Part shown: positions 4,283-16,717 of the stretch, piece by piece
How positions within the stretch are numbered: the stretch's first letter is position 1
Layout of the letters: each line of letters opens with the position of its first letter
Assembly (NCBI RefSeq): GCF_004340665.1
Contig: NZ_SLWO01000005.1
Coordinates: forward strand, 312,614 to 336,613
Reading direction: 5' to 3'
DNA: 24,000 nucleotides
Source: Pedobacter psychrotolerans
GTDB lineage: Bacteria; Bacteroidota; Bacteroidia; Sphingobacteriales; Sphingobacteriaceae
The notes under the pieces: model-generated
Told to the model about the DNA's origin: nothing
Seen by the model: the letters and a program-made list of their open reading frames with translations, nothing else
Database searches by the model: none
Program-made: the position numbers and the translations under genes

Positions 4283-4286
4283 CTGG

Positions 4287-4332
4287 AAAGCGCTGAACAA
4301 CAGTTAATTACGACTGAATCAGCGCTTTTTTT
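4287..4332 (+). terminator. Intrinsic terminator candidate after tRNA cassette 2
   Basis: A 10-bp stem, aaagcgctga (4287-4296) with tcagcgcttt (4319-4328), then a T7 tract to 4332. Confidence 0.55.
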
Positions 4333-4523
4333 ATACTATCGATCTTTATTTTACATCAACATTTATTGTACTAAGCTTAAGAACTCCTATCCACACATCA
4401 ATGGATAATGATCTATTTAGCGCAGACAGGTTTATTTCTGAATCCTTTCGTTTATTCAATCATTAATTATGAAAGTTGTTCAGGCTTATCTAACTTATTC
4501 CTCGTCTTCATAATATTCTGAGT

Positions 4524-4586
4524 TCATTTCGGGATTAGGTGTGTATTTCGGTGAAAGTGACCCCTCTGTTTCGGGCCAAACTGGCC
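4524..4586. repeat. Left cluster of about 21-nt TTTCG-N-AAA-N-TG-N-CC units (transposase-binding-site-like)
   Basis: Units are catttcgggattaggtgtg (degenerate), tatttcggtgaaagtgaccc and tctgtttcgggccaaactggcc. They are inverted relative to the cluster at 4885-4973. Confidence 0.5.
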
Positions 4587-4884
4587 ACCAAATTGATTAC
4601 CGGATGATGCACATCTAAGTTCCTTTCCCTCTGAACAAATATACACTTCGGATCCAAATCCATCTTACTGCCGGATTTATCCTCAATTCAGATCTTTCTA
4701 GCGATCAAAATCCATTCGCAGGTACTGGAACGCGTAAAAAAACGCCATATCCCCTTCAAAACAGCGAAGTGACCGTAGTCCATCCCTAATAGTAGATATG
4801 CTCCCAGGAGCCTTTATTTTATGCAGAAATTGAAAAATTATTCTCGAAAGCCAGTTGCGAAAAAAGCTGATCGAAAGATCAGAA

Positions 4885-4973
4885 CGGCCAGTTTGCCCCG
4901 AAACAGGTGGTCACTTTAAAGCGAAATGGGATGACAGTTTAAATGCGGAACGGCTGGCCATTTTTGCCAAAAT
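4885..4973. repeat. Right cluster of four about 21-24-nt units, inverted relative to 4524-4586
   Basis: Units are ggccagtttgccccgaaacag, gtggtcactttaaagcgaaatg, ggatgacagtttaaatgcggaacg and gctggccatttttgccaaaatg. The innermost unit is the reverse complement of 4566-4586 at 20 of 21 positions. Confidence 0.5.
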
Positions 4974-5124
4974 GCCCAGATTATGCTCATAAAACATAAT
5001 AAAATCGATTAAAGGGCTTAAAAAAGACAAAAAATGGATAAAAAGAAACAGCTCTTCAATCCGCTTATCAGCCCAGCATTAATAAATAGTAGCCAATTCT
5101 GGGATGTCTTTCCATGTCGAAATA

Positions 5125-5155
5125 TTTGAGAGATTTAAACCTCCTAATAAATTTG
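5125..5155 (+). promoter_or_regulatory. Promoter candidate for the NTPase-RES gene pair
   Basis: -33 TTTG at 5125-5128, a 19-nt spacer, and -7 TAaaTTTG at 5148-5155. The geometry matches the two tRNA promoters. It lies about 110 nt upstream of the ATG at 5265. Confidence 0.35.
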
Positions 5156-5264
5156 ACATTAATGAGCAATTAATCTTTCCCCTTGTATTAAAGTAACATT
5201 TGAAGGTTTTCTAAACATTTGAAAAATCCTTAGCTTAGGAGAATCTATTACTTAACACTCCATA

Positions 5265-8200
5265 ATGCCTAATACAAGAGAAATCATCCTTTCCGCATTG
5301 GAATGGTTAACAAAAAAACTAACGGTTCAATCAAGTGCATCCGGAAAAGTCGCTCTAAAGACCACTGATCTTCTAGAGGACCTTACCCCTAGGGTTGACC
5401 CTGTAAGCACTAAAAACTATTGCGATGCAATTCATTGGGCATTGCAAAGGCCCAACGTGTTAAATATTGCGCTTTCCGGACCGTATGGATCAGGCAAGAG
5501 TACTATTTTAAGTTCTTTGCAGGCAAATGATAAGGGCCATAAATTTTTGTATATCTCCCTTGCCTCTTTTAAGGATACTTCGCTGGTTCAGGATAGCTCC
5601 ATTATCGGGCCCCGCTTACCGGGGGAGACTAGAAGGGAATTTATGGAAGAGCAGCAACTGATCCATGAGATTCATAAGCAGATCGAGTTAAGTATTTTGC
5701 AGCAAATGCTATACAAAGTGTCAGGGAGTGAACTACCTCAATCCAGATTCAAAAGGATTATTAGCCTCTCGGGTAAGATGATGTGGGCACAGGCAGTATA
5801 CATACTTTTCTTTTTAATGAGCGCGGTGTTTCTGTTCAACAAGACATTTAGGGACGATCTCTACCATTGGAAACACATGTCGTTCATCTTGGAGGTGCTA
5901 TTACTGGTGGCGACGATGATCATCTTTTCAGCTGGGGTAATTTATATTGGCAGAGCAATTATCAATTTTCTATATACATCTAAGTTTAGCAAGATTAATC
6001 TCACCAGCGGCGAGATCGAGATCTCCAAGGATATTGATGGTTCTGTATTGAATAAGTACCTAGATGAGATTATTTACTTTTTTGAAAAGACAAAGTATGA
6101 TGTAGTGATCATTGAGGATCTGGACCGCTTTAACGATCCAGAAATCTTTACTAAGCTCCGGGAGATCAATATGATGATCAACAATTCTGAGCAAATCCAT
6201 CCGATGAGGGTCAAGTTTATCTATGCCATCAAGGATGACATCTTCCAGGACAAGAATCGAACAAAATTCTTCGATTTTATTATTCCTGTCATTCCACATT
6301 TAACAGCTGCGAACTCGCTAGATGTATTGCTGCCTAAGATGGCCAAACTAAACCTTAATCCACCATTTAACCAAAAATTCCTATATGACATCATGCTCTT
6401 TGTGGATGATATGAGGATACTGATCAATACCTATAATGAATTTGTACTTTATCAGCACAATCTAAAGCATCCTGAAAATCAATTAGTCCCTGAAAAACTA
6501 TTTGGTATAATGGTCTATAAGAATCTTTTTCCCAATGACTTCGCCAAGCTCCATATTCGCGAGGGTGATATTCCTAATACCTTTGATCGAAAGGCATCTT
6601 ACATTATAGAGCAATCCAAAATACTTGATGCTGAAATGCTAGAGATCGAGGAGCAATTGGAGAAGAATGGGCTTGAAAAACTTCAAAATCTAGCAGAGCT
6701 TCGCAAGGTGTTCATCATGGCATTAATCAGTACCTTTCCAACGGCACTGGCAATAGAGGTATCAGGCAGGAAAACATTTACTGAACTTCAACAAGAAACC
6801 GTATTCGATGAGCTTAGGCTAATCCCAAATATTCACTATTATACTAGGACATTAAACGATACCCAAACTCCATCAAAGATAAGCTTTGCTGAGGTTGAGC
6901 GAAAAGCAGATGCCGGTGATTATGTACAGCGTCGACAGATAATCATTTCCTCCGCTCAGGATAATCAAGGGAAGCTGAGAAATAGGCGCGATGAGATTGC
7001 CCAAATGTTAAAGCGGATCAACAGTGCTCCCTTAAAATCCTTGTTTAAGGATAACAAAAAAGCGCATGAGTTCTTTCCAACATTAGTTAAAAAGCCAATC
7101 CTACGCTATCTGATCAGTGGTGGGTATATCGATGAGATGTATGAAATCTATATTTCCCATTTTTACAATAAAAGTTTAACTGCAACCGATCTTGTATTTC
7201 TCAAGAAACTAAAAAACCTCGAGAAATCTAATTATGCCTATAGTATTCAGAAACCAGTCGAGCTTTTACACCGAATGGCCGACGAGGATTTTTTGCTAGA
7301 GGAAGCGCTCAACTTTAAATTGCTTGATTTTCTAATCCAGAATAAAGCTACCTACTCCATCCCCTATAATAACATTTTTAAATTGTTGGCAGATGATAGC
7401 ACGACTAGCTTGGAATTTACTAGGGGCTATCTCTCTATAACAAAAAATATTACTGGTTTCATTGAAAAGATTACCACAGCATATCCTAAGTTTTGGTGGA
7501 CCGTAAGAAGCCTAACTAAGTATGGCGTTGATCAACAATTGTTAATCATGACTACTATGATCAAACACTGTGATATGAACACCATCCACGCACAAAATAC
7601 AGACGAATCAATTAAGCATTATTTGCAGGGAGATACAACAGACTTTATTCTTCAGTTTCCAAACAAAAAAGACCATCATAGGGTAATGAATACAGTCAGA
7701 AACCTCAATGTACATTTCCAACATATGACTTCTGCTGCATTCTCTTCTCCACTATTTAAGAGTATTTATGAACAAAAGTTTTTTACTGTCTCATACGATA
7801 TGATTAAACTAATGTTCAGATTTTGTGTTGGGAAGAACCCTATTGCTATGGAGGAGTTTGAGAATGCAAACCTCACTACAATTAAAAAGTATAATTGCCA
7901 GCCACTTTTTGAACATATTGAATACCATTTGGACTTATATGTTTCCTTGGTTTCTCTAGAGATGGAGAATAACAAGAATGAATCTGTAGAAATCATTAAA
8001 ATGATGCTTTCTAAGCTTAAAAATGAAGAGAATAGGCTCAAAGTAATTGAGCATCAAAAAACGACATTACCCTCTTTCAAGGATATAGATGTTTCGCTCT
8101 GGTCAACACTAGTAGAAAACAATAAAATTCTTTCAAAATGGAAGAATATAGAGCAATATTACGTCGAAAAAGGAGGACTGGATCAGGAAATGATAATGTA

Positions 8201-8969
8201 CATCAATAAAACCAAAACCTCTATGCTTTTATGGGTGGACGACATTGACATCACTATTAATTCTAAAGCCCACGAATTACTTCTTTCAATAATAAATGAA
8301 CCAAAAATAACGGATACAGCTTTCACCATGTTAATTGGGAAAATAAGATATAAATTTGAAGCAGAAGATATATTCAGTTCAGCGCCAGAGGCCCACCTAC
8401 GAATGCTAATTGATAATGGCAACATTGTGCTAAACAGTTTCAATTTTAATGCATTATCGACTTTTGAAAATGATCTAAAAATAGCATTGGTCAAGAAGAA
8501 TTTCAGTAGCTTTTCTAAACAGTCCGAAATATTTTCACTAGTTAGTCAGGAATGGGTAAGATTAATCCAGTTAAAGCCAACTAATACTCAAAAGGAAAAA
8601 ATCATATCGATGATTCCCATTTCAAGTATAACCGGATACTTTCTAGCTAACCAACTAACCAAGTTATTATTAGCAAAGAATGGGAAGCGTACCGAATTTG
8701 ATTTTATTGTCAAGTTATTCGGTTTCGGCAATAATCCTATGGATAAAGTTAAATTATTGAACCTTTATGGAGAAAATTATTCAAAAGAACAATTAAGAGA
8801 ACTTTTACTAGCAATGGGCGGGAAATACGAAAAAATTAGTCCGGGTTCATTCCCCAGGCTAGATGCCAATCCAGACCATAAAAGGATGCTTTCTCTATTA
8901 TATGACAAAAAACTTGTGAAAGAATTTCCATTAAGAAACAACAAATTTGTTGTATTACCTGCCAAATAA
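5265..8969 (+). CDS. YobI-like / KAP-family P-loop NTPase with two transmembrane helices inserted in the NTPase domain and a C-terminal region of about 940 aa with no recognisable domain
   Basis: 1234 aa. Walker A is GPYGSGKST (aa 72-80, nt 5478-5504). Hydrophobic helices are at about aa 172-191 (MWAQAVYILFFLMSAVFLF) and 205-229 (MSFILEVLLLVATMIIFSAGVIYIG). The Walker B-like motif YDVVIIEDLDRF (aa 278-289) is followed by EIFTKLREIN. This order is the KAP NTPase signature. The size and layout match what I recall of the B. subtilis YobI family. Confidence 0.8.
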   Translation: MPNTREIILSALEWLTKKLTVQSSASGKVALKTTDLLEDLTPRVDPVSTKNYCDAIHWALQRPNVLNIALSGPYGSGKSTILSSLQANDKGHKFLYISLASFKDTSLVQDSSIIGPRLPGETRREFMEEQQLIHEIHKQIELSILQQMLYKVSGSELPQSRFKRIISLSGKMMWAQAVYILFFLMSAVFLFNKTFRDDLYHWKHMSFILEVLLLVATMIIFSAGVIYIGRAIINFLYTSKFSKINLTSGEIEISKDIDGSVLNKYLDEIIYFFEKTKYDVVIIEDLDRFNDPEIFTKLREINMMINNSEQIHPMRVKFIYAIKDDIFQDKNRTKFFDFIIPVIPHLTAANSLDVLLPKMAKLNLNPPFNQKFLYDIMLFVDDMRILINTYNEFVLYQHNLKHPENQLVPEKLFGIMVYKNLFPNDFAKLHIREGDIPNTFDRKASYIIEQSKILDAEMLEIEEQLEKNGLEKLQNLAELRKVFIMALISTFPTALAIEVSGRKTFTELQQETVFDELRLIPNIHYYTRTLNDTQTPSKISFAEVERKADAGDYVQRRQIIISSAQDNQGKLRNRRDEIAQMLKRINSAPLKSLFKDNKKAHEFFPTLVKKPILRYLISGGYIDEMYEIYISHFYNKSLTATDLVFLKKLKNLEKSNYAYSIQKPVELLHRMADEDFLLEEALNFKLLDFLIQNKATYSIPYNNIFKLLADDSTTSLEFTRGYLSITKNITGFIEKITTAYPKFWWTVRSLTKYGVDQQLLIMTTMIKHCDMNTIHAQNTDESIKHYLQGDTTDFILQFPNKKDHHRVMNTVRNLNVHFQHMTSAAFSSPLFKSIYEQKFFTVSYDMIKLMFRFCVGKNPIAMEEFENANLTTIKKYNCQPLFEHIEYHLDLYVSLVSLEMENNKNESVEIIKMMLSKLKNEENRLKVIEHQKTTLPSFKDIDVSLWSTLVENNKILSKWKNIEQYYVEKGGLDQEMIMYINKTKTSMLLWVDDIDITINSKAHELLLSIINEPKITDTAFTMLIGKIRYKFEAEDIFSSAPEAHLRMLIDNGNIVLNSFNFNALSTFENDLKIALVKKNFSSFSKQSEIFSLVSQEWVRLIQLKPTNTQKEKIISMIPISSITGYFLANQLTKLLLAKNGKRTEFDFIVKLFGFGNNPMDKVKLLNLYGENYSKEQLRELLLAMGGKYEKISPGSFPRLDANPDHKRMLSLLYDKKLVKEFPLRNNKFVVLPAK

Positions 8970-8995
8970 TTAATGAATAACTAATAAGAGAAATC

Positions 8996-10456
8996 ATGAT
9001 TGAGGGTAACCATGTTTGCCATAAATGTATCAGCGATGAGTTTTTATCCACTGAGGTAAAAAAAATGGGAAAGTCTAGATTGTGTAGCTATTGCCAACAT
9101 AAACGCAAAGGTTATACATTAGAGGAAGTTTCGGATCGGGTTGAAAAGGCGTTTTTCGAACATTATGAACGGACGCCAGAAGAACCGTCAGAATACCAGT
9201 ATTGGATGCAGCATGCCGATAAGGAGTCGAACTATCATTGGTATCGCGAGGGCGAGCTAGTGGTAGATATCCTTGAAAATGACTTAGGTTTTGAAGCAAA
9301 GCTTGCCAATGATATTAGTGAGAATTTAAGAGACCGATACGCTAATTACGGATCAGATGAAATGTATGAGGAGACCGAATTTGGTTCCGAGAGTCATTAC
9401 GAATCAGCTGGCATAAGTGATAGGGAATGGCAAGTACAGCAGGATGCATTTGATCGGTCATTACGAGCAGAAGCGCGGTATTTTAATGAGCCGTTAAGGC
9501 AGTATCTTCAACAGATTTTTGAGGGAATTGACGAATTAAAGACCTACGGGCGAAAAACTGTTATTACGGAGGCTGGGCCTGGTCGGGAAATTACAGGACT
9601 GTTTCGTGCAAGGGTATTTCAAAATGAAAATCAATTATTGGAAGCATTAAGTAAGCCTGATCAGCACCTAGGATCACCCCCCTCAAGGTTTGCTATGGGT
9701 GGAAGAATGAACGCAAGGGGCATCTCTGTATTTTACGGAGCATCTAATCCTAACACAGCCCTAGCAGAGGTCCGTCCACCCGTTGGCAGTTTGGTTGCAG
9801 TAGCAAGCTTTATATTACTCAGACCAGTTAGGCTACTGAATTTACCTATACTGGCTGAGCACCATGCCTCGGGCAGTGTCTTTGACCCCAATTATTTGGG
9901 AAGGAAACAAAAAAGTCTTTTTTTAAGGAACCTCAGCCAAAAGCTTATTGTTCCAGTGATGCCTGATCAAGAGGATTTTGATTACCTGCCTACTCAGGCA
10001 TTGGCCGATTTTCTCTCCTCCCACCCAATACTAAGCCTCGACGGCATTGTTTTTCCATCTGTACAAACTGAGGGAAAAGGTGGCAATATAGTTTTATTCC
10101 ATAAGGCAGCAAGAATTTCAGCTATAGAACTCCAAAATGGTGATTCCATTAGGGCTTCAGCAAGAGATTATGATGAGGATGACGAATATGAATCATACAG
10201 CGTACTTGAGGTTAAGGGCAACAAAATTCCTGTGCCAAAGCCGATGACCCACCTGAGGGACAATACTGGTCAGTACCATTTCGATAAAAAAATTGAACCT
10301 ATTCAGGATGATCGAATCGAAACACTAAGTGTAAATTATAAATCAATGCAGGTACATCGGATTAAGGGGATAGAAATCCTCAAAGAATCGTTTGATGTGA
10401 GTCATCGGGTGGCAAAACCTGTAGTCATCAAAGAGTCTAATGTGAGAGATTTTTAA
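8996..10456 (+). CDS. RES-domain protein with an N-terminal Cys4 zinc-ribbon domain (resembles the HEPN/RES-associated NTD1) and an acidic C-terminal extension
   Basis: 486 aa. CHKC (aa 8-11) and CSYC (aa 30-33) are present. The RES signature is GGRMNARGISVFYGASNPNTALAEVRPP (R237, E258) plus DGIVFPSVQ (S355). It starts 27 nt after the NTPase stop. Confidence 0.85.
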   Translation: MIEGNHVCHKCISDEFLSTEVKKMGKSRLCSYCQHKRKGYTLEEVSDRVEKAFFEHYERTPEEPSEYQYWMQHADKESNYHWYREGELVVDILENDLGFEAKLANDISENLRDRYANYGSDEMYEETEFGSESHYESAGISDREWQVQQDAFDRSLRAEARYFNEPLRQYLQQIFEGIDELKTYGRKTVITEAGPGREITGLFRARVFQNENQLLEALSKPDQHLGSPPSRFAMGGRMNARGISVFYGASNPNTALAEVRPPVGSLVAVASFILLRPVRLLNLPILAEHHASGSVFDPNYLGRKQKSLFLRNLSQKLIVPVMPDQEDFDYLPTQALADFLSSHPILSLDGIVFPSVQTEGKGGNIVLFHKAARISAIELQNGDSIRASARDYDEDDEYESYSVLEVKGNKIPVPKPMTHLRDNTGQYHFDKKIEPIQDDRIETLSVNYKSMQVHRIKGIEILKESFDVSHRVAKPVVIKESNVRDF

Positions 10457-10856
10457 GCTTACATTTAAGACTTGGTAATTTTGATTTTGAACATTCAGTA
10501 TAGCCGTTGATTTTTTTAAATAATCTTCCGTAGTCATATATGGAAGCTGACACCTAGATCAAGTCTAATAGATTTATTAGGATTATCGACAATAACTGCT
10601 ATTTATGTTTATCAAAACAGTCCACTGTATATAGAAATCATAGATTTTGATAAACCTCATAAACATTCAAAACAAGGAAATTAAATTCTAGTTGATAAAA
10701 TAAGTATTAATTCATTTTTGTTTTATAAATTTCTTACTTCTAATAAAGAACCTATTCATAATAGTAGTGACACTCGTTTCCCCTATTACATCCCCCACTC
10801 GTTATTATCTAGCAGGTTCATGCGAGAAAGCGATAGGAAATAAGAATTTAACTAGC

Positions 10857-10871
10857 CCCCTACGGGCTACA
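10857..10871 (+). repeat. Isolated copy of the 3-prime end of tRNA-Glu (att-like direct repeat)
   Basis: cccctacgggctaca is identical to 3386-3400 (tRNA-Glu copy 1 T-arm/acceptor 3-prime half plus 2 nt). It is identical to 4270-4283 over 14 nt. The following bases (ttaatcaa) also resemble the flank of copy 1 (ctaattaca). Confidence 0.6.
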
Positions 10872-10886
10872 TTAATCAATGTCAAA

Positions 10887-10918
10887 ACCTGCAAATCAAA
10901 CATTTGCAGGTTTTTTTT
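10887..10918 (+). terminator. Strong intrinsic terminator
   Basis: A perfect 10-bp stem, acctgcaaat (10887-10896) with atttgcaggt (10902-10911), a 5-nt loop and a T8 tract to 10918. Confidence 0.75.
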
Positions 10919-11142
10919 ATTAATATCAAAAACCTGCCTTATTCATCTCTGATTGTAAAGTGTCACCTCGGTGGCATGGGCAGAATAATCGGTTTTTGCT
11001 TCATCCATCAAACTCAGCGCATCTACCTTAATGGATGCAATCTAACGATAAGCAAAACGGTCGAAATTCGACATCATTGGGCTGCACGCTGTGCTGATTA
11101 AAACTTACGAGCCAGCAACAAGCTTTTTTTTCATACCTGTAA

Positions 11143-11997
11143 CTATTGGGTGATAAGTGCCATCACTTTTAAAGCGGCCTTGTCGCCGTTAAAAAGATCC
11201 AGGTCTACCTGACCGGCCACGCCCGTTACCGCCCCGCCTCCAGAATATTGCCAGATGCGATAGTCCTGCCATGAACCAAATAATCCCGGCGGGTTAGATT
11301 GATAAGATGGCACCCATAACGGGTAATTTGGAAAAGAAACGCCGTTAAAATATTCAGCCCAGAACGATTTTGCGGTATAGATCATCGGTGTGCGACCAGT
11401 TGCAGATGAAAGTTGGCTGAGGCAGTCCTGAATCAGCTGCACGCAGGCGTTCTTATTGTTCAGGATGTACTGGTTCATGGCCTGGCTCTGCCCATCATTA
11501 GATCCGACCTGCCATTCGATATCCAGCACCGGCGGTAAAGTGCCCGGGACAGTGAAATCAACGCCGCAGGATAAAAAGTTCTGCATCTGCGTGGCGGCAG
11601 AATCCTGAAAGGTTAAAAAATGATAGGCACCAAATATCAGTCCCTGCTGCCTGATGGTTGCCATATACTGCGCCAGTGTAGGGTCTTTAAAGCCTGCACC
11701 CTGACTGGCTTTGCAATAAATAAACTGGATATGCGGCGATAACTGACTCCAGTTGATGTTGCCGGTAAAATGGCTGATGTCCATGCCTTGCGGCACCAGC
11801 TCATCCAGCACGGCCCAGGTGGCCGGCCCGGCAACGCCGTCGGCACTTAACTGATGGTCCTTTTGAAATTGTGTAACGGCGGCCTGGGTACCCGGGCCAA
11901 AGTTACCATCGATAGAGAGTGAATAATGGAGAAACGAGAGTGCTCTTTGCAGCATAAAAACCTCGCTGCCTGATGAGCCGATTGAAAGTGTTTGCAT
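11143..11997 (-). CDS. Peptidoglycan-binding domain plus GH25 muramidase (endolysin-like lysozyme), no obvious signal peptide
   Basis: The N-terminus GSSGSEVFMLQRALSFLHYSLSIDGNFGPGTQAAVTQFQKDHQLSADGVAGPATWAVL fits the PG_binding_1 pattern. GMDISHFTGNINWSQL...FIYCKASQGAGFKDPTLAQYMATIRQQGLIFGAYHF...VLDIEW fits the GH25 pattern. The N-terminus MQTLSIGSSGSE is not hydrophobic. Confidence 0.85.
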   Translation of the reverse strand: MQTLSIGSSGSEVFMLQRALSFLHYSLSIDGNFGPGTQAAVTQFQKDHQLSADGVAGPATWAVLDELVPQGMDISHFTGNINWSQLSPHIQFIYCKASQGAGFKDPTLAQYMATIRQQGLIFGAYHFLTFQDSAATQMQNFLSCGVDFTVPGTLPPVLDIEWQVGSNDGQSQAMNQYILNNKNACVQLIQDCLSQLSSATGRTPMIYTAKSFWAEYFNGVSFPNYPLWVPSYQSNPPGLFGSWQDYRIWQYSGGGAVTGVAGQVDLDLFNGDKAALKVMALITQ

Positions 11998-12050
11998 AAG
12001 ATAAGATTTAGATGAATGAATATATTAAGTTTTAACGGGTATTGCAACAG

Positions 12051-12827
12051 CTATCCGTAAAATGCATTACCTCCGCTGCTTGTATGAACGGGAGGAGTTT
12101 GTACAGCCGCGGGGGGCTGATATGGATGGATTGCAGGTGCTGGCGCGGCCGCGGGTGTGTAATTAGGAACGCCGGTTTTTGGTGTGCCCTCAGCCTCGTT
12201 TTCTCTTGATCGGATAGCCACAAATATGGCACTGCTAATGCCCATTAACATAAGTAAAGTATCGCTTAACTCTGGCAAACCACAGCCTGTTTTAATTTCT
12301 CCTATTTTGTAAAGGTAAATACTTACGCCTACCATGGTCCATACAACGTGCTGAAACCGGTGAATGCTGATGCCTAAATCATCTGATAATATATCCGTAA
12401 AGAAGCCTAGCGAGGGCGTATTCTGATGTCTTGGTCGCTGATCTTTTATTTCGCGTTTATCGATGATTTTGGACGTGACCGCAGTACATGAAAAAATCCC
12501 CAATAGCACCAGTGCCGTTTGATTTATTTCAGTTTCGGAACAATCGCCCTTAAACAGTGAAAGGTACAGATAGGAACAGGATATGACCACAGTCCACAAT
12601 CCCAACTGTACCTTTTCTAAACTGTAAGGAGACGTAATATTTTTCGGTGACTTACTCAAGTTAATGCTATCAGGTCTGATAAATCCGTCATCATTTTCAA
12701 CATCTTCGCGAAGCAATAATGTATATTTCCCAAGTAAGACAAACGAAAGGATAATGGTTAATATACCGGCTATGGCCAGCAATGATTCCGAATTGGCAAA
12801 AGTTACGAATAGCATTTTCAGATACAT
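12051..12827 (-). CDS. Polytopic membrane protein (about 5 TM helices) with a Pro/Ala-rich C-terminal tail
   Basis: Hydrophobic segments include LLAIAGILTIILSFVLLG, LGLWTVVISCSYLYLSLF, ALVLLGIFSCTAVTS, VVWTMVGVSIYLY and LLMLMGISSAIFVAI. The tail reads TPAAAPAPAIHPYQPPAAVQTPPV. No family recognised. Confidence 0.6.
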   Translation of the reverse strand: MYLKMLFVTFANSESLLAIAGILTIILSFVLLGKYTLLLREDVENDDGFIRPDSINLSKSPKNITSPYSLEKVQLGLWTVVISCSYLYLSLFKGDCSETEINQTALVLLGIFSCTAVTSKIIDKREIKDQRPRHQNTPSLGFFTDILSDDLGISIHRFQHVVWTMVGVSIYLYKIGEIKTGCGLPELSDTLLMLMGISSAIFVAIRSRENEAEGTPKTGVPNYTPAAAPAPAIHPYQPPAAVQTPPVHTSSGGNAFYG

Positions 12828-12914
12828 TAAATTTGCTTATATAATTGTTTTATTGATGATAGTTGGCTTATGGTTTAAAAGAATTTCCAGATGAACTTTT
12901 ATCGATGTGACATA

Positions 12915-13622
12915 TTACTGCCCATTAGCCACTATATTACTGAGCAGGTCAACATGTGCCTGATTAAGATCGCTTAAGGGAGTGCAAATATTTCCAAAAT
13001 CAGCGTAGCGCTGATTAAATCTGAACTGCAAAGTTGGCTGCACGCCTGATGGTTGTGGAAATGTTTCAATACAAACGAAGTTATTATTCAGGAGTGGCAC
13101 TTCTATCCACCAATGTGTTTCATTGGGCCCATAAGGTATTCCGTCTTCCCCTGCATCGTCATAATGCATCACCATTATATAATTAGCTGACTGGCCTGCT
13201 TCAATATACCCCAGTGCGGTGCTGATATTGTTACATACCCAAGTCATGGCCTCTTCCCGGAATTGTCTCCAGATTGTCCAGTCGCCCTGATTATGTGGAG
13301 CATATGGGTCAAACTCCATAATATACTGATGCCCCTGTATTAGGGTTTGCAGAATTTGCTCTTGCGACCAATAAGAAGCCGGATCAGGATTGATACCCAA
13401 TAATATGGTGTCAAAAGCATTCGCAGGCCTGTGAATAATGGTTGGCGTGTTTTGCTGGTTATAGTTAATGTTATCTAATAAACCAAAAAGTGCCCATTTC
13501 CAACAGGAAACGTTGTCTGGCGTAAACCCATCTGGCAAATTAGCGAGTTGTATAGTAGCCCCGGGGCTTGCCTGTACATAATTATTTAAGGCATTAATAA
13601 TAGCCTGAGTTAGTTGTGGCAT
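12915..13622 (-). CDS. Hypothetical protein (235 aa), Trp-rich, no family recognised
   Basis: A long ORF co-directional with its neighbours and without low-complexity sequence. No motif I can name. Confidence 0.55.
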   Translation of the reverse strand: MPQLTQAIINALNNYVQASPGATIQLANLPDGFTPDNVSCWKWALFGLLDNINYNQQNTPTIIHRPANAFDTILLGINPDPASYWSQEQILQTLIQGHQYIMEFDPYAPHNQGDWTIWRQFREEAMTWVCNNISTALGYIEAGQSANYIMVMHYDDAGEDGIPYGPNETHWWIEVPLLNNNFVCIETFPQPSGVQPTLQFRFNQRYADFGNICTPLSDLNQAHVDLLSNIVANGQ

Positions 13623-13747
13623 AAGGTTATCTTTTAAGGCATTGTATAAATTTGCTGCATGTGCCCCACTACTTTTATTTATTTTTATAATAGTGGTACC
13701 TGTTGTTTAATTTCAACATGTTGTAAAAAGACTAGTCAAAATGATTA

Positions 13748-14422
13748 TCATTTAAACAGATTACTTGGCCCTTGCGGAGAGCCGAACATTGACGTAGCAT
13801 ACTGAAAAGTTGGTGTAGGCAAAGGGTTTGGTGTACCAAAAATATTCATTGGAAGTGTTGGCAAGGTGTTTTGTAGAAATCCGTCAACACTTGTACTTTC
13901 ATTACGATATGGAAATGGATAAACCAAACAGGTAGCACCCCATTTTTGCCATAAAATTTCAAACCCTTTCTCTTTAATAGCCTTTTCAACATACTCAGGA
14001 GAAATACATATGCCAACGGCAATTCTGCGGCCTAGCACACCACATCCTTTCAGTTTTTCAACATCACGGCTTAGGCCAGGACTAAAATTTTGCCGGTTTT
14101 CCAGGGATTCACACTTTAATTCTACCAATAATATTTCCAAAGTACCGTTGTCAAAAATCATATCTGCTTTTTGACCTAACTTTGCAAAACCCGGACTTAG
14201 CATCGTTTTATTATTATTCTGTAACAAACTGGCAGTTACGTTGCCTGATACCGCTTCGCGTAAAAAGCCTCTAGGCTGGAATTCCATATTCTTTATATAT
14301 AGAGATAAATCGGTTTGAGCCCAAGGTTCCCAACCCCCTCTAAGCTCAGCGAGTGATGTGAAATCTTTGCCTCTTGCGTCACACCATTTGGTGACAATAT
14401 CATAAAAGGTGTAATAATTCAT
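13748..14422 (-). CDS. Hypothetical protein (224 aa) with a possible PD-(D/E)xK nuclease-like motif
   Basis: KADMIFDNGTLEILLVELKCES has the D...ExK spacing typical of the restriction-endonuclease fold. This is pattern-level only. The C-terminus is Pro/Gly-rich. Confidence 0.5.
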   Translation of the reverse strand: MNYYTFYDIVTKWCDARGKDFTSLAELRGGWEPWAQTDLSLYIKNMEFQPRGFLREAVSGNVTASLLQNNNKTMLSPGFAKLGQKADMIFDNGTLEILLVELKCESLENRQNFSPGLSRDVEKLKGCGVLGRRIAVGICISPEYVEKAIKEKGFEILWQKWGATCLVYPFPYRNESTSVDGFLQNTLPTLPMNIFGTPNPLPTPTFQYATSMFGSPQGPSNLFK

Positions 14423-14433
14423 AGTTGTCTTGT

Positions 14434-14658
14434 TTAATGTTGGCTTCCGAATGGCGACTTGCCGCCAGGCCCTCCCGGGGTCAGTACAGTTGTTTTGGTC
14501 AGTACCATTGGCGAAACTGTTATGTGATCAAATTTATTAGCATAGTCATCGTACCAAACACACTTTACAATGCCCTGAGCAACGTTTGAAACAGTCATTA
14601 CTGGCCCGCCTGAAATGAGTTTGACCACATCGCCCTGATTAAATATTGTTTGTGCCAT
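14434..14658 (-). CDS. DUF2158 / YodC-like small protein
   Basis: FNQGDVVKLISGGPVMTVSNVAQGIVKCVWYDDY matches the GDxVxLxSGGPxMTV...C.WYD pattern of the E. coli YodC family. Confidence 0.65.
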   Translation of the reverse strand: MAQTIFNQGDVVKLISGGPVMTVSNVAQGIVKCVWYDDYANKFDHITVSPMVLTKTTVLTPGGPGGKSPFGSQH

Positions 14659-14691
14659 TTCTTTGCTTTTTAGTAATTTTCAGCTGATTTA

Positions 14692-15102
14692 TTATTGCGC
14701 ATTTGTAGTGCTGCCTGTGTTATTCAATGCACTTTCCGCATTTTTTACACTTTGCTGAGCAGCCAGCATGGCCGCATCAACATTGGTGTTTACCGTGTTT
14801 ATGGCTTGCTGAATAGGGTTGATTACGGGTGGTGCCACCGGTGTAACAGCTGCTGCGGCTTGAGGCTGTGCCTGGTCATTAACCATTTGCAAACTACTTG
14901 CGGCGAGTGCCTGGAAACTACTATCAACCTGCGATTGCATCGCTTGTATAGCCTGTTGTTGAATGGTGGCAATCTGCGATTTAAGATCGCTGATTTGTTG
15001 CTGCATGACCTGATGAGGCGACATTGATGGTGCCGCGGCTGGCTGATTATCGGGCACAACTGGTGTACCCCCTATATTAGGAGAATCGCTTTGCTGTTGC
15101 AT
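14692..15102 (-). CDS. Gln/Ala-rich, probably coiled-coil protein (136 aa from ATG 15102; the ORF-track start at 15168 would add 22 aa)
   Basis: MQQQSDSPNIGG...QQQISDLKSQIATIQQQAIQAMQSQVDSSFQALAASSLQMVNDQAQPQAAAA. The heptad-like Q/A-rich composition is co-directional with the reb array. The upstream extension MVKGGGTINRCCPHSNHLKNIT looks non-native. Confidence 0.5.
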   Translation of the reverse strand: MQQQSDSPNIGGTPVVPDNQPAAAPSMSPHQVMQQQISDLKSQIATIQQQAIQAMQSQVDSSFQALAASSLQMVNDQAQPQAAAAVTPVAPPVINPIQQAINTVNTNVDAAMLAAQQSVKNAESALNNTGSTTNAQ

Positions 15103-15201
15103 AGTAATGTTTTTTAAGTGATTGGAATGAGGACAGCACCTGTTTATGGTGCCGCCCCCTTTAACCATTTCCGTTCCTTTTGGATCCGGTGTAAAGACGG
15201 C

Positions 15202-15471
15202 TTAAGAGCCGAAAATTTGTTTGGTACCCACGGCATCAGATGCCGTATCGATTGAATACAACATGGTTACACCCATAGTAGTAGCGGCCTGTGCGGTAAT
15301 GTTACTTTGTTGTTGACTGCTGGTGGCGTTGTGTGCTGCATTAGCCAATGCCTGTGCGGTGGCCTGGTACAGGTTGCCCATTGCAATTGCAGGAGCATCA
15401 CCCAATACTTTGGTGTTTGCCTGGGTTACAGAGTCGGTGATCTGATCGTTTACTGAAGTTGGAAAAGCCAT
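15202..15471 (-). CDS. rebB: RebB-family R-body protein, tandem copy A (89 aa)
   Basis: MAFPTSVNDQITDSVTQANTKVLGDAPAIAMGNLYQATAQALANAAHNATSSQQQSNITAQAATT matches my recollection of the RebB (Pfam Killing trait) consensus VNSQITDsVTQ.N.kVLGeAPA.AmG.lYQ...A...A..NAv..QQ. Confidence 0.85.
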   Translation of the reverse strand: MAFPTSVNDQITDSVTQANTKVLGDAPAIAMGNLYQATAQALANAAHNATSSQQQSNITAQAATTMGVTMLYSIDTASDAVGTKQIFGS

Positions 15472-15507
15472 GATAAAGTTGTTTTAAATGATTAATTCGT
15501 TTTGGTT

Positions 15508-15795
15508 TTATTGCCCAAGTACTTTACCCGGAGCATAGATTTTTTTGGTACCCACGGCATCAGAAGCGGTGTCGATAGAATACAGGGTGGTTACGCCCAT
15601 GGTGGTTGCCGCCTGCGCCGTAATATTACTTTGCTGCTGACTGCTGGTGGCATTGTGTGCCGCATTGGCCAAAGCCTGCGAGGTAGCCTGGAAAAAATTG
15701 CCCATCGCGATAGCTGCCGCATCACCCAATACTTTGGTGTTGGCCTGGGTCACCGAATCGGTGATCTGACTGTTTACTGCTGTTGGAAAAGCCAT
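15508..15795 (-). CDS. rebB: RebB-family R-body protein, tandem copy B (95 aa)
   Basis: Same family signature. The C-terminus is extended (KKIYAPGKVLGQ). Confidence 0.85.
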   Translation of the reverse strand: MAFPTAVNSQITDSVTQANTKVLGDAAAIAMGNFFQATSQALANAAHNATSSQQQSNITAQAATTMGVTTLYSIDTASDAVGTKKIYAPGKVLGQ

Positions 15796-15818
15796 AACTG
15801 TTTAGATTTAAGGTTAAA

Positions 15819-16085
15819 TTATTGATAAATCATATGGGTGCCCACGGCATCTGATGAAGTATCGATCGAATAAAGGGTGGTCACTGCCGAGGTGGTAGAA
15901 GCCTGCGAGGTCATATTGGTTTGCTGCTGACTGCTGGTAGCATTATGCGCCGCATTGGATAATGCCTGTGAGGTAGCCATAAAGAGATTGCCCATTGCCA
16001 TGGCCGGCGCATCGCCCAGTACCTTGGTGTTGACTTCGGATACCGAATCGGTGATCTGACTGTTTACTGCTGTTGGAAAAGCCAT
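15819..16085 (-). CDS. rebB: RebB-family R-body protein, tandem copy C (88 aa)
   Basis: Same family signature, subtype SxVN / MATSQALSN. Confidence 0.85.
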   Translation of the reverse strand: MAFPTAVNSQITDSVSEVNTKVLGDAPAMAMGNLFMATSQALSNAAHNATSSQQQTNMTSQASTTSAVTTLYSIDTSSDAVGTHMIYQ

Positions 16086-16115
16086 AACGGTTTAGTTTTA
16101 AGGTTAAAAACTGGA

Positions 16116-16382
16116 TTACTGATAAATTTTACGGGTACCTACCGCATCAGATGAAGTATCTATCGAATACAGGGTGGTAATGCCCGATGTGGTGGCCGCC
16201 TGTGCCGTAATGTTGGTTTGCTGCTGACTGCTGGTGGCATTGTGTGCCGCATTGGATAATGCCTGCGAGGTAGCCATAAAAAGGTTACCCATTGCCATTG
16301 CCGGCGAATCACCCAAAACCTTGGTGTTAACTTGCGATACAGAGTCGGTGATCTGGTCGTTTACTGCTGTTGGAAAAGCCAT
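16116..16382 (-). CDS. rebB: RebB-family R-body protein, tandem copy D (88 aa)
   Basis: Same family signature, subtype SxVN / MATSQALSN. Confidence 0.85.
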   Translation of the reverse strand: MAFPTAVNDQITDSVSQVNTKVLGDSPAMAMGNLFMATSQALSNAAHNATSSQQQTNITAQAATTSGITTLYSIDTSSDAVGTRKIYQ

Positions 16383-16422
16383 TTTTGTTTGAATTTAAGT
16401 GTGAATTTATGGTTGATTATTT

Positions 16423-16689
16423 TTAAGCGAATATCTGTTTCGTACCTACCGCATCAGAAGCGGTGTCTATTGAATACAAAGTAGTTACACCCATGGTGGT
16501 TGCCGCCTGCGCCGTAATATTACTTTGCTGCTGACTGGTTGTGGCATTATGTGCTGCGTTTGCCAGTGCCTGTGCGGTTGCCTGAAAAAGATTGGCCATT
16601 GCGCTCGCCGGAGCAACGCCTAATACCTGTGTGTTTGCCTGGGTCACCGAATCGGTGATCTGACTGTTTACTGCTGTTGGAAAAGCCAT
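16423..16689 (-). CDS. rebB: RebB-family R-body protein, tandem copy E (88 aa)
   Basis: Same family signature, subtype TQAN / QATAQALAN. Confidence 0.85.
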   Translation of the reverse strand: MAFPTAVNSQITDSVTQANTQVLGVAPASAMANLFQATAQALANAAHNATTSQQQSNITAQAATTMGVTTLYSIDTASDAVGTKQIFA

Positions 16690-16717
16690 AATTGTTGTTT
16701 TTTATTGTTATTAATGA

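Follow-up and report, generated by a model that had tools for sequence, protein, structure and literature searches.

The subject of this analysis is a stretch of 24,000 nucleotides from Pedobacter psychrotolerans (contig NZ_SLWO01000005.1, positions 312,614 to 336,613 of the forward strand, hereafter the window) and, within it, two adjacent genes at the 3′ end of an R-body (reb) gene cluster, the products of which are a multi-pass membrane protein, here called MEM, and a muramidase of glycoside hydrolase family 25 (GH25). In the original prediction, made from the sequence alone, both genes were regarded as a possible self-lysis cassette for the release of R bodies. The features on which the argument depends are the following.

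11143-11997, minus strand: muramidase of 284 amino acids with PG_binding_1 and GH25 domains and no signal peptide (Pfam, PHROGs, hydropathy).
12051-12827, minus strand: MEM, a five-helix predicted inner-membrane protein of 258 amino acids (hydropathy, AlphaFold2).
15202-17415, minus strand: array of seven RebB-family genes (Pfam PF11747 and genome scan).

The minus-strand genes are co-directional from position 19942 down to 11143, the muramidase gene being the last of them, and the MEM gene lies 53 nucleotides upstream of it on the same strand, the equivalent distance in relatives being 45-55 nucleotides. Five of the seven RebB proteins have 88-95 amino acids, one has 74 and one has 148 with a tail rich in P, T and S. 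The PF11747 profile produced eight above-cut-off matches on one strand (contig positions 327851-331626, equivalent to 15238-19013 of the window), and a genome-wide profile scan revealed no second reb locus in the 5.19 Mb of the genome. With several adjacent RebB-family genes, the locus is by its gene content an R-body cluster, from which R bodies would be produced.

On the evidence of its domains, the muramidase is an ordinary and intact member of GH25, with the architecture of an endolysin and a predicted activity. Glyco_hydro_25 (PF01183) was detected on residues 72-260 with the complete profile aligned (positions 1-180 of 180; E 1.6e-39, 136.5 bits vs. a cut-off of 27), and PG_binding_1 on residues 9-64 (Pfam, E 4.3e-19), whereas PHROGs assigned the protein to endolysin families (best E 1.4e-42). 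The nearest solved structure is that of the Streptomyces cellosyl (1JFX, E 7e-25), in which the GxD(I/V)SH and VLDIE motifs are identical; the corresponding residues here are D73, D159 and E161, which are taken to be catalytic, as in cellosyl. The protein has no hydrophobic N-terminus (maximum 19-residue Kyte-Doolittle mean of 1.0), as this end is occupied by PG_binding_1.

For MEM, hydropathy peaks of up to 2.54 were obtained, and an AlphaFold2 model built with 50 homologues (predicted local distance difference test, pLDDT, 78.8; predicted template modelling score, pTM, 0.72) contains long helices at residues 13-35, 70-92, 103-128, 155-177 and 189-209, a short helix at 142-147 and a disordered, proline-rich tail from about residue 215. 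No other transmembrane-grade hydrophobic segment was found in the minus-strand proteins or open reading frames (30-160 amino acids or more) between positions 10900 and 19100, so MEM stands alone in this respect. Both descriptions given in the original prediction, that of an endolysin-type PG_binding_1 plus GH25 enzyme without a secretion signal and that of a membrane protein of roughly five transmembrane helices with a proline-rich tail directly upstream, are thus in agreement with the Pfam, PHROGs, hydropathy and modelling results.

When 50 sequences of the MEM family were aligned with the window protein as the reference row, 12 columns were invariant (L70, Q74, W78, D145, D149, G152, R157, F158, Q159, P185, G196 and S198), and a motif, PRHQNxPSxGFFxDILSDDxGISIHRFQ (amino acids 132-159), was seen to join helices 3 and 4. 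Lysine and arginine residues amount to five in loop 36-69, six in loop 122-157 and three in the tail, compared to one in loop 94-102 and two in loop 177-188. Many homologues begin with a lipoprotein signal, which is absent from the window copy and from the reb-linked relatives in Sphingobacteriaceae. Because of this positive-inside count and of the lipoprotein N-terminus of many homologues, MEM is predicted to have its N-terminus outside and its C-terminus inside, with the conserved loop and the proline-rich tail in the cytoplasm, probably the same compartment as that of the muramidase, and with the conserved cysteines C96 and C182 on the periplasmic side. All the reb-linked copies end in FYG (amino acids 256-258 in the window; L045-L049 and L053 among the surveyed loci), a C-terminus absent from the copies not linked to reb genes, which may be a docking motif.

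MEM constitutes an undescribed family of Bacteroidota membrane proteins. Its homologues make up at least 260 clusters in a set of 5.8 billion proteins, where the labels are only 'hypothetical' or 'lipoprotein', and no match was found in Pfam, PHROGs or NCBIfam. These searches, along with those of phage sequences and of folds described below, ruled out MEM as a member of a recognised holin family. Of the earlier proposal that MEM is a holin analogue, the holin position and the multi-pass character were therefore retained, but not the kinship, as no holin family, phage relative or fold match was detected.

The matches of the muramidase to PHROGs endolysin families, and the presence of an adjacent tRNA-linked island and a pseudogene that mark a recombinogenic site, could be taken as traces of a decaying prophage lysis cassette, placed by chance beside the reb genes. 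This explanation was rejected and keeps hardly any probability. PHROGs matches in the cluster were limited to the muramidase and a DUF2158 protein of unknown function, without further phage-type genes, so that the absence of other phage genes, already put forward from the sequence as an argument against a simple prophage remnant, was upheld. Moreover, the identity of the muramidase to phage endolysins does not exceed 35%, no MEM was found in the phage collections searched, the arrangement is intact and conserved across genera, and no MEM-GH25 pair was found in a recognisable prophage.

The genomic contexts of MEM were then compared in a survey of one genome per GTDB species, which yielded 55 loci, nearly all of them from Bacteroidota, whose 20-kb regions were annotated by tblastn, clustering and Pfam; in the bacterial family of the window, 15 of 201 genomes have a MEM homologue. 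A signal-less muramidase gene lies beside MEM in 23 of the 55 loci, and the enzymes belong to three unrelated families: GH25 in 5 loci, GH108 in 11 and GH19 or GH19-like in 7. The loci were sorted as follows, fam6 and fam5 being two further gene families (a lipoprotein and a protein of 110 amino acids, respectively).

Class A, reb-linked, Sphingobacteriaceae: five loci, GH25; reb genes, then MEM-GH25, then fam6 and fam5 (a fam6 fragment only in Pedobacter sp. R20-19).
Class A, reb-linked, a Chitinophagaceae metagenome-assembled genome (L053): one locus, GH19-like; five reb genes-o158-DUF2158-MEM-GH19-like.
Class B: 11 loci; MEM adjoining a protein of 189 amino acids with GH108 and PG_binding_3.
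Class C: about 18 loci; fam6-fam5-(bestrophin-like PF14023)-MEM, often with a LuxR-type response regulator.
Class D: about 18 loci; distant MEM-like genes, no muramidase recognised.

A gene for a GH19 endolysin-like protein of 200 amino acids (PDB E 3.6e-37) is present in six class C loci, frameshifted in one of them. The 337-residue protein of L053 had no Pfam hit and is GH19-like only by hhalign (91.6%, E 8e-7, C-terminal half) and by weak PDB motif hits. An N-terminal hydrophobic signal was found in none of the GH25 sequences, the GH108 representative or the GH19 sequences read out. All 23 MEMs paired with a muramidase fall in one clade of 33 tree rows (support 100/97), inside which the reb-linked Sphingobacteriaceae proteins form a subclade (100/100). 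In P. alluvionis and Pedobacter sp. PF22-3 there are two MEM paralogues each, one reb-linked with GH25 and the other with GH108. As there are just two GH25 genes in the whole 5.2-Mb genome of the window strain, chance adjacency of the pair is negligible. Holin-endolysin pairs show just such a pattern, in which one hydrolase family takes the place of another while the membrane partner stays the same, and of all the results it speaks most strongly for a cooperation of MEM with the muramidase.

The same survey offers a different explanation, in which MEM belongs to an independent envelope module for autolysis, vesiculation or wall remodelling, whose other components would be fam6, fam5 and, in many cases, a bestrophin-like channel and a response regulator of the LuxR type; one paralogue would merely hitch-hike on the reb island. 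About 48 of the 55 MEM loci are indeed away from reb genes; the GH108-linked MEM is in a stable chromosomal context in several Pedobacter species, beside unrelated metabolic genes; a bestrophin-like gene is near MEM in 15 of the 55 loci and a response-regulator gene in 13; and the G+C content of the pair, along with an internal recombination breakpoint (see below), indicates a mosaic cluster. In contrast, the order reb-MEM-muramidase spans two bacterial orders, with GH25 in one case and a GH19-like enzyme in the other, despite the exchange of the intervening genes, and the reb-linked MEMs have their own clade (100/100) and a C-terminal FYG not seen elsewhere. Reb clusters without MEM still have GH25 or GH25-like genes, and in the window the pair is on the reb strand, with short gaps and no terminator detected. 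On balance, an independent module appears unlikely.

The association with reb genes was examined from both sides. The order of reb genes followed by MEM-GH25 is present in five other Sphingobacteriaceae genomes (Mucilaginibacter sp. Bleaf8, P. alluvionis, Pedobacter sp. PF22-3, P. terrae and Pedobacter sp. R20-19) and in at least two distinct metagenome variants, on contigs where MEM is 70-71% identical and is separated from the reb array by other genes. Conservation of the pair beside reb genes in other genomes, which the original prediction had proposed as a check, was therefore confirmed. When PF11747 clusters were sought in 800 Bacteroidia genomes independently of MEM they proved rare. In one of them, from another family (G726), o158 is immediately followed by the gene of an Rv2525c_GlyHyd-like (GH25-like) protein without a signal peptide, and another (G707) has a GH25 lipoprotein gene beside the reb genes, in both cases without MEM. 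Among 31 distant metagenome reb loci of at least 8 kb, GH25 was detected in three, which makes it the commonest non-regulatory Pfam family in the flanks, and Rv2525c-like genes in two more, whereas the commonest family overall beside these arrays was the AraC-type helix-turn-helix. These counts are a lower bound, as one or more genes of this kind were lost in the picking of open reading frames and the list of families was confined to the 25 most frequent. A universal link between reb genes and muramidases was not supported, with five of the 31 distant loci only.

Further genes were noted in two of the reb loci of other families. In L053, after the reb-MEM-GH19-like segment, positions 4411-7843 encode a proline-rich repeat protein matching PAM2, then two paralogues of about 163 amino acids, and also a protein of 608 amino acids with an N-terminal eCIS_core domain (PF13699); the genes beyond the GH19-like one are possible cargo or toxin genes. 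In L130 (positions 6984-8858), from another Bacteroidia family, the GH25-like gene comes after the reb cluster, and beyond it are encoded an AAA ATPase, the N-terminal region of which is of the winged-helix type, and two large proteins whose function is unknown.

The remaining features of the cluster, from its regulator to its 3′ end, are listed below.

19094-19942, minus strand: AraC-family regulator beside the cluster (Pfam HTH_18), kept in L045-L049 and L130.
19048-19055, minus strand: Bacteroidetes -7 box TAnnTTTG upstream of the first gene of the reb cluster (consensus match only).
18891-19013, minus strand: small eighth RebB-like frame, open over about 52 amino acids (Pfam and genome scan).
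18477-18803, minus strand: o108, a conserved reb accessory gene (synteny).
17423-18451, minus strand: o342, a conserved reb accessory gene (synteny).
14692-15168, minus strand: o158, a Q/A-rich helical protein that comes after the reb array in every cluster of the window type, as well as in L053 and L130.
14434-14658, minus strand: DUF2158 protein, part of the variable accessory cassette (Pfam).
13748-14422, minus strand: o224, part of the variable accessory cassette (synteny).
12915-13622, minus strand: o235, part of the variable accessory cassette (synteny).
10884-10914, no strand assigned: 13-bp palindromic hairpin with flanking A/T runs (terminator scan).

All the genes from o108 through GH25 are on the same strand, with gaps of 7-40 nucleotides inside the reb array and of 33, 33, 11, 125, 87 and 53 nucleotides toward the 3′ end of the cluster. 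The -7 box at 19048-19055 is the only canonical one in any minus-strand intergenic space of the cluster and is a candidate for the operon promoter, and the hairpin at 10884-10914 is likely a bidirectional terminator that ends the minus-strand unit. A scan of the intergenic regions between the reb genes and the pair found neither an above-chance terminator nor a canonical Bacteroidetes -7 box. Scans for sigma-70 promoters (27 vs. 24.3) and for intrinsic terminators (13 vs. 10.6) were at chance level. These signals are compatible, if weakly, with one long operon from the reb genes through GH25. The eighth RebB-like frame sits between the AraC gene and o108, just downstream of this sole canonical box, and equivalents of 47-54 amino acids have been called in metagenome relatives.

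Comparison by blastn with Pedobacter sp. R20-19 showed 96.7% identity over positions 14731-23377 and 88% over 10857-12632, but no similarity over 12633-14730, which comprises the first ~65 codons of MEM, o235, o224, the DUF2158 gene and the 3′ end of o158. Unrelated genes replace this segment in R20-19, and the window shares it with Mucilaginibacter sp. Bleaf8 at about 75% identity. As this segment differs from R20-19 yet matches Bleaf8, with breakpoints at about 12632, inside MEM, and about 14731, the cluster is a mosaic in which the middle cassette has been exchanged between lineages. The G+C content is 0.48-0.52 in the reb genes and GH25 (0.51 for the latter), compared to 0.40-0.45 for MEM and the cassette; the mean of the window is 0.40. 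A tRNA-linked island with YobI-type NTPase and RES genes (4284-10856) is also absent from R20-19, where its flanks join at the tRNA repeat; in the window this repeat is at 10857-10871, just past the hairpin.

Such hypervariable genes between the reb array and MEM, swapped together with the first ~65 codons of MEM, recall many toxin/immunity cassettes, and suggest an explanation in which the pair either serves a non-lytic route of secretion, similar to type 10 systems, for o224, o235 and their equivalents, or consists of an antibacterial cargo, the muramidase, with MEM as its immunity protein or escort. The Chitinophagaceae locus does continue with a protein carrying eCIS_core (PF13699), and non-lytic, holin-dependent secretion is documented (PMC9527704, PMC13284979). 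Nevertheless, no recognisable toxin domain was detected by Pfam, PHROGs or NCBIfam in the accessory proteins of the window, the R bodies themselves are far too large for non-lytic export, and the conserved parts of MEM are predicted to be cytoplasmic. With only two periplasmic loops of ~10 residues left by this topology, unlike in periplasmic immunity proteins, a role of MEM as one of these is disfavoured, and the explanation as a whole seems very improbable.

Downstream of the muramidase gene, one further feature bears on the integrity of the module.

10943-11134, minus strand: pseudogene remnant of the four-helix-bundle lipoprotein fam6 (three-frame translation vs. the intact copy of Pedobacter sp. 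PF22-3).

The order in relatives is GH25, fam6 and fam5. In the window, fam6 is interrupted by two in-frame stops and cut short at its 3′ end, and fam5 is gone, as is also the case for fam5 in Pedobacter sp. R20-19, where a fam6 fragment is retained. The possibility that fam6 and fam5 are spanins was rejected: the AlphaFold2 model of an intact fam6 is a four-helix-bundle lipoprotein with structural matches to generic helical bundles only, fam5 has no N-terminal transmembrane segment, and both genes are decayed or lost here.

Taken together, the above results are best read as a non-phage pair, a holin-like partner and a cytoplasmic muramidase, that the reb operon has acquired as a means of autolytic release or of breaching the wall, a reading to which we give about an even chance. 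The same chance is given to the more general statement that the pair is the core of a Bacteroidota-specific envelope-breaching module attached at the 3′ end of the operon. Transcription of the cluster would start at a promoter located before the first reb gene, probably under control of the AraC-type regulator next to it, and R bodies would assemble in the cytoplasm while the export-signal-free GH25 muramidase builds up there as a folded enzyme. MEM would enter the inner membrane with its conserved loop and proline-rich tail toward the cytoplasm and, when triggered by its own concentration, by loss of the membrane potential or by a stress such as ingestion, would permeabilise the membrane or conduct the muramidase across it. 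PG_binding_1 would then dock the enzyme on the sacculus and GH25 would cleave the glycan strands, so that the cell would burst, or the weakened wall would let the unrolling R body break out, and a sacrificed subpopulation would free R bodies along with any co-encoded cargo. Thus, of the self-lysis release cassette that was first proposed, the architecture, the position, the lack of a prophage context and the linkage to reb genes have been sustained, but MEM belongs to no holin family, the pair is not universal and fam6 has decayed.

Several observations weigh against such a role. No relatives of MEM were found in viruses, either by a motif scan of 2.9 million IMG/VR contigs or by tblastn against 50,697 INPHARED phage genomes, and a Foldseek search with the AlphaFold2 model found no match in PDB or BFVD (best E >0.4, TM-score <0.25). 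A protein of 258 amino acids with five helices, a strongly conserved cytoplasmic loop and frequently a lipoprotein signal is atypical for a holin. In 12 of the 33 core-clade loci there is no muramidase within 10 kb of MEM, the neighbours being only fam6, fam5 or bestrophin-like genes, and therefore MEM is not strictly dependent on one. Neither a GH25 nor an Rv2525c-like gene was detected within ~6-10 kb in about 26 of the 31 distant metagenome reb loci, and none of the 31 has MEM. According to Raymann et al. (PMC3583457), proteobacterial reb loci have conserved hypothetical partners and no prophage genes nearby, and a term search of that paper found no lysis gene described for them. As most of the distant and proteobacterial reb loci lack the pair, it is, from this distribution, an accessory of particular reb lineages, neither a universal reb component nor required for R-body function. 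In addition, the fam6 pseudogene and the loss of fam5 may mean that the module is incomplete in this genome, and the promoter argument is a weak one that leans on a degenerate consensus. Finally, in the classical model it is the R body itself that ruptures the bacterium after ingestion (PMC8322103).

This classical model agrees with a limited export of the muramidase, which would thin or open the sacculus for the rigid coil or for piercing by the R body while the cell remains intact until it is ingested. The secreted GH25 lipoprotein (G707) or Rv2525c-type protein that some reb clusters have without a membrane partner would fit such a priming of the wall better than a holin-triggered lysis, and a priming would also suit the dispensability here of the putative accessory genes fam6 and fam5. 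However, systems of all-or-none lysis are built in this way, from a signal-less enzyme that has a wall-binding domain and is accompanied by a membrane protein. Wall priming looks rather improbable compared to the lytic or wall-breaching role described above.

Compared to known systems, the pair resembles a phage holin-endolysin(-spanin) cassette in that the gene of a signal-less, wall-binding hydrolase directly follows that of a membrane protein, in that the hydrolase is interchangeable (GH19, GH25 or GH108) beside one partner, and in that a lipoprotein gene comes next in the intact copies. It differs from such cassettes in the lack of a phage context and in the membrane protein, which is two to three times larger than classical holins, matches none of their families or folds, has a cytoplasmic loop that is strongly conserved and in many homologues begins with a lipoprotein signal; fam6, for its part, does not model as a spanin. 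In Yersinia entomophaga, a Tc toxin is released by a chromosomal lysis cassette, or type 10 secretion system, in a specialised subpopulation (PMC10847048, PMC10101115). Lysis-type genes are likewise found here outside a prophage and beside a large intracellular weapon, as if domesticated, and lysis of a subpopulation is proposed, but the Yersinia cassette is phage-derived (holin, endolysin and spanins) and its function has been determined by experiment, whereas here only the hydrolase is phage-like and the function is deduced. ChiWXYZ of Serratia is a comparable type 10 secretion system. As in these domesticated lysis cassettes, a membrane protein and a hydrolase are encoded outside a prophage beside the genes of the product; no phage-derived holin and no spanin accompany them.

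The pyocin (tailocin) cluster of P. aeruginosa carries holins and the GH19 endolysin Lys, which mediate explosive cell lysis (PMC8131026, PMC12329726). It shares with the present locus a cytoplasmic endolysin and a membrane partner encoded with a machine that cannot be secreted, and an altruistic release, here a proposed one, in contrast to which this locus belongs to another phylum and has another membrane protein, the pyocin cluster being wholly derived from phage tails. CidA and LrgA are chromosomal, non-phage membrane proteins proposed to control the access of murein hydrolases and programmed lysis. MEM has no sequence, Pfam or fold similarity to them, and the sizes and helix numbers differ.

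Described reb loci, such as those of Caedibacter pKAP298, P. aeruginosa PA14, Azorhizobium and the proteobacterial synteny groups 1 and 2 (PMC3583457, PMC8322103, PMC5527310), have multiple RebB-family genes, lineage-specific accessory genes and a dedicated regulator, as the window locus does. Reb genes are reported to have no phage relatives (PMC3583457), expression in a subpopulation has been proposed for PA14, and R-body producers have been suggested to act as 'kamikaze' cells (PMC8322103). The literature searches and term look-ups found no report of a lysis cassette or a muramidase gene within a reb locus, and Reb homologues of Bacteroidota had earlier been mentioned only for Kordia algicida (PMC3583457). 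What would be new here is the coupling of an intracellular weapon to a domesticated module of the lysis type, the membrane protein of which is undescribed.

The exit of R bodies from the cell and the nature of their payload have been open questions since the work on Caedibacter, and the conserved pair, linked as it is to reb genes, offers a concrete route of release that can be tested by knock-out in culturable soil bacteria (Pedobacter, Mucilaginibacter). If lytic, the pair could be used to induce lysis at will in Bacteroidota, a phylum in which little is known of the machinery of lysis and autolysis, and in R-body biotechnology.

Because it is partnered with three unrelated families of signal-less muramidases, MEM is also a candidate gating family, for a new, non-phage passage of endolysin-like enzymes across the inner membrane of Bacteroidota. 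A tentative extension, which we hold to be possible but less than evenly probable, is that MEM founds a cellular, non-viral class of holin-like gatekeepers that admit folded, signal-less GH19, GH25 or GH108 enzymes, and that its FYG-tailed, reb-linked subfamily makes programmed suicide cells of R-body producers; if true, this would explain how free-living bacteria get R bodies and their payload out of the cytoplasm.

Away from reb genes, a recurrent chromosomal module was observed with the composition (histidine kinase)-LuxR-type response regulator-fam6 lipoprotein-fam5-bestrophin-like membrane protein-(GH19 endolysin-like)-MEM, in Chitinophagaceae, Sphingobacteriaceae and Spirosomataceae (L050-L052, L054-L059, L062, L063, L066, L067, L070, L072 and L094), which by its gene content looks like an undescribed regulated envelope or autolysis system. 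One of these loci (L059) is labelled as Williamsia sp., from an Actinomycetota metagenome-assembled genome, but has a typical Bacteroidota fam6-fam5-bestrophin-MEM arrangement with 57% identity, so that mis-binning of this contig is probable. MEM-like genes of a very distant kind were also detected in metagenome-assembled genomes of Acidobacteriota and Vulcanimicrobiota (L099/L095).

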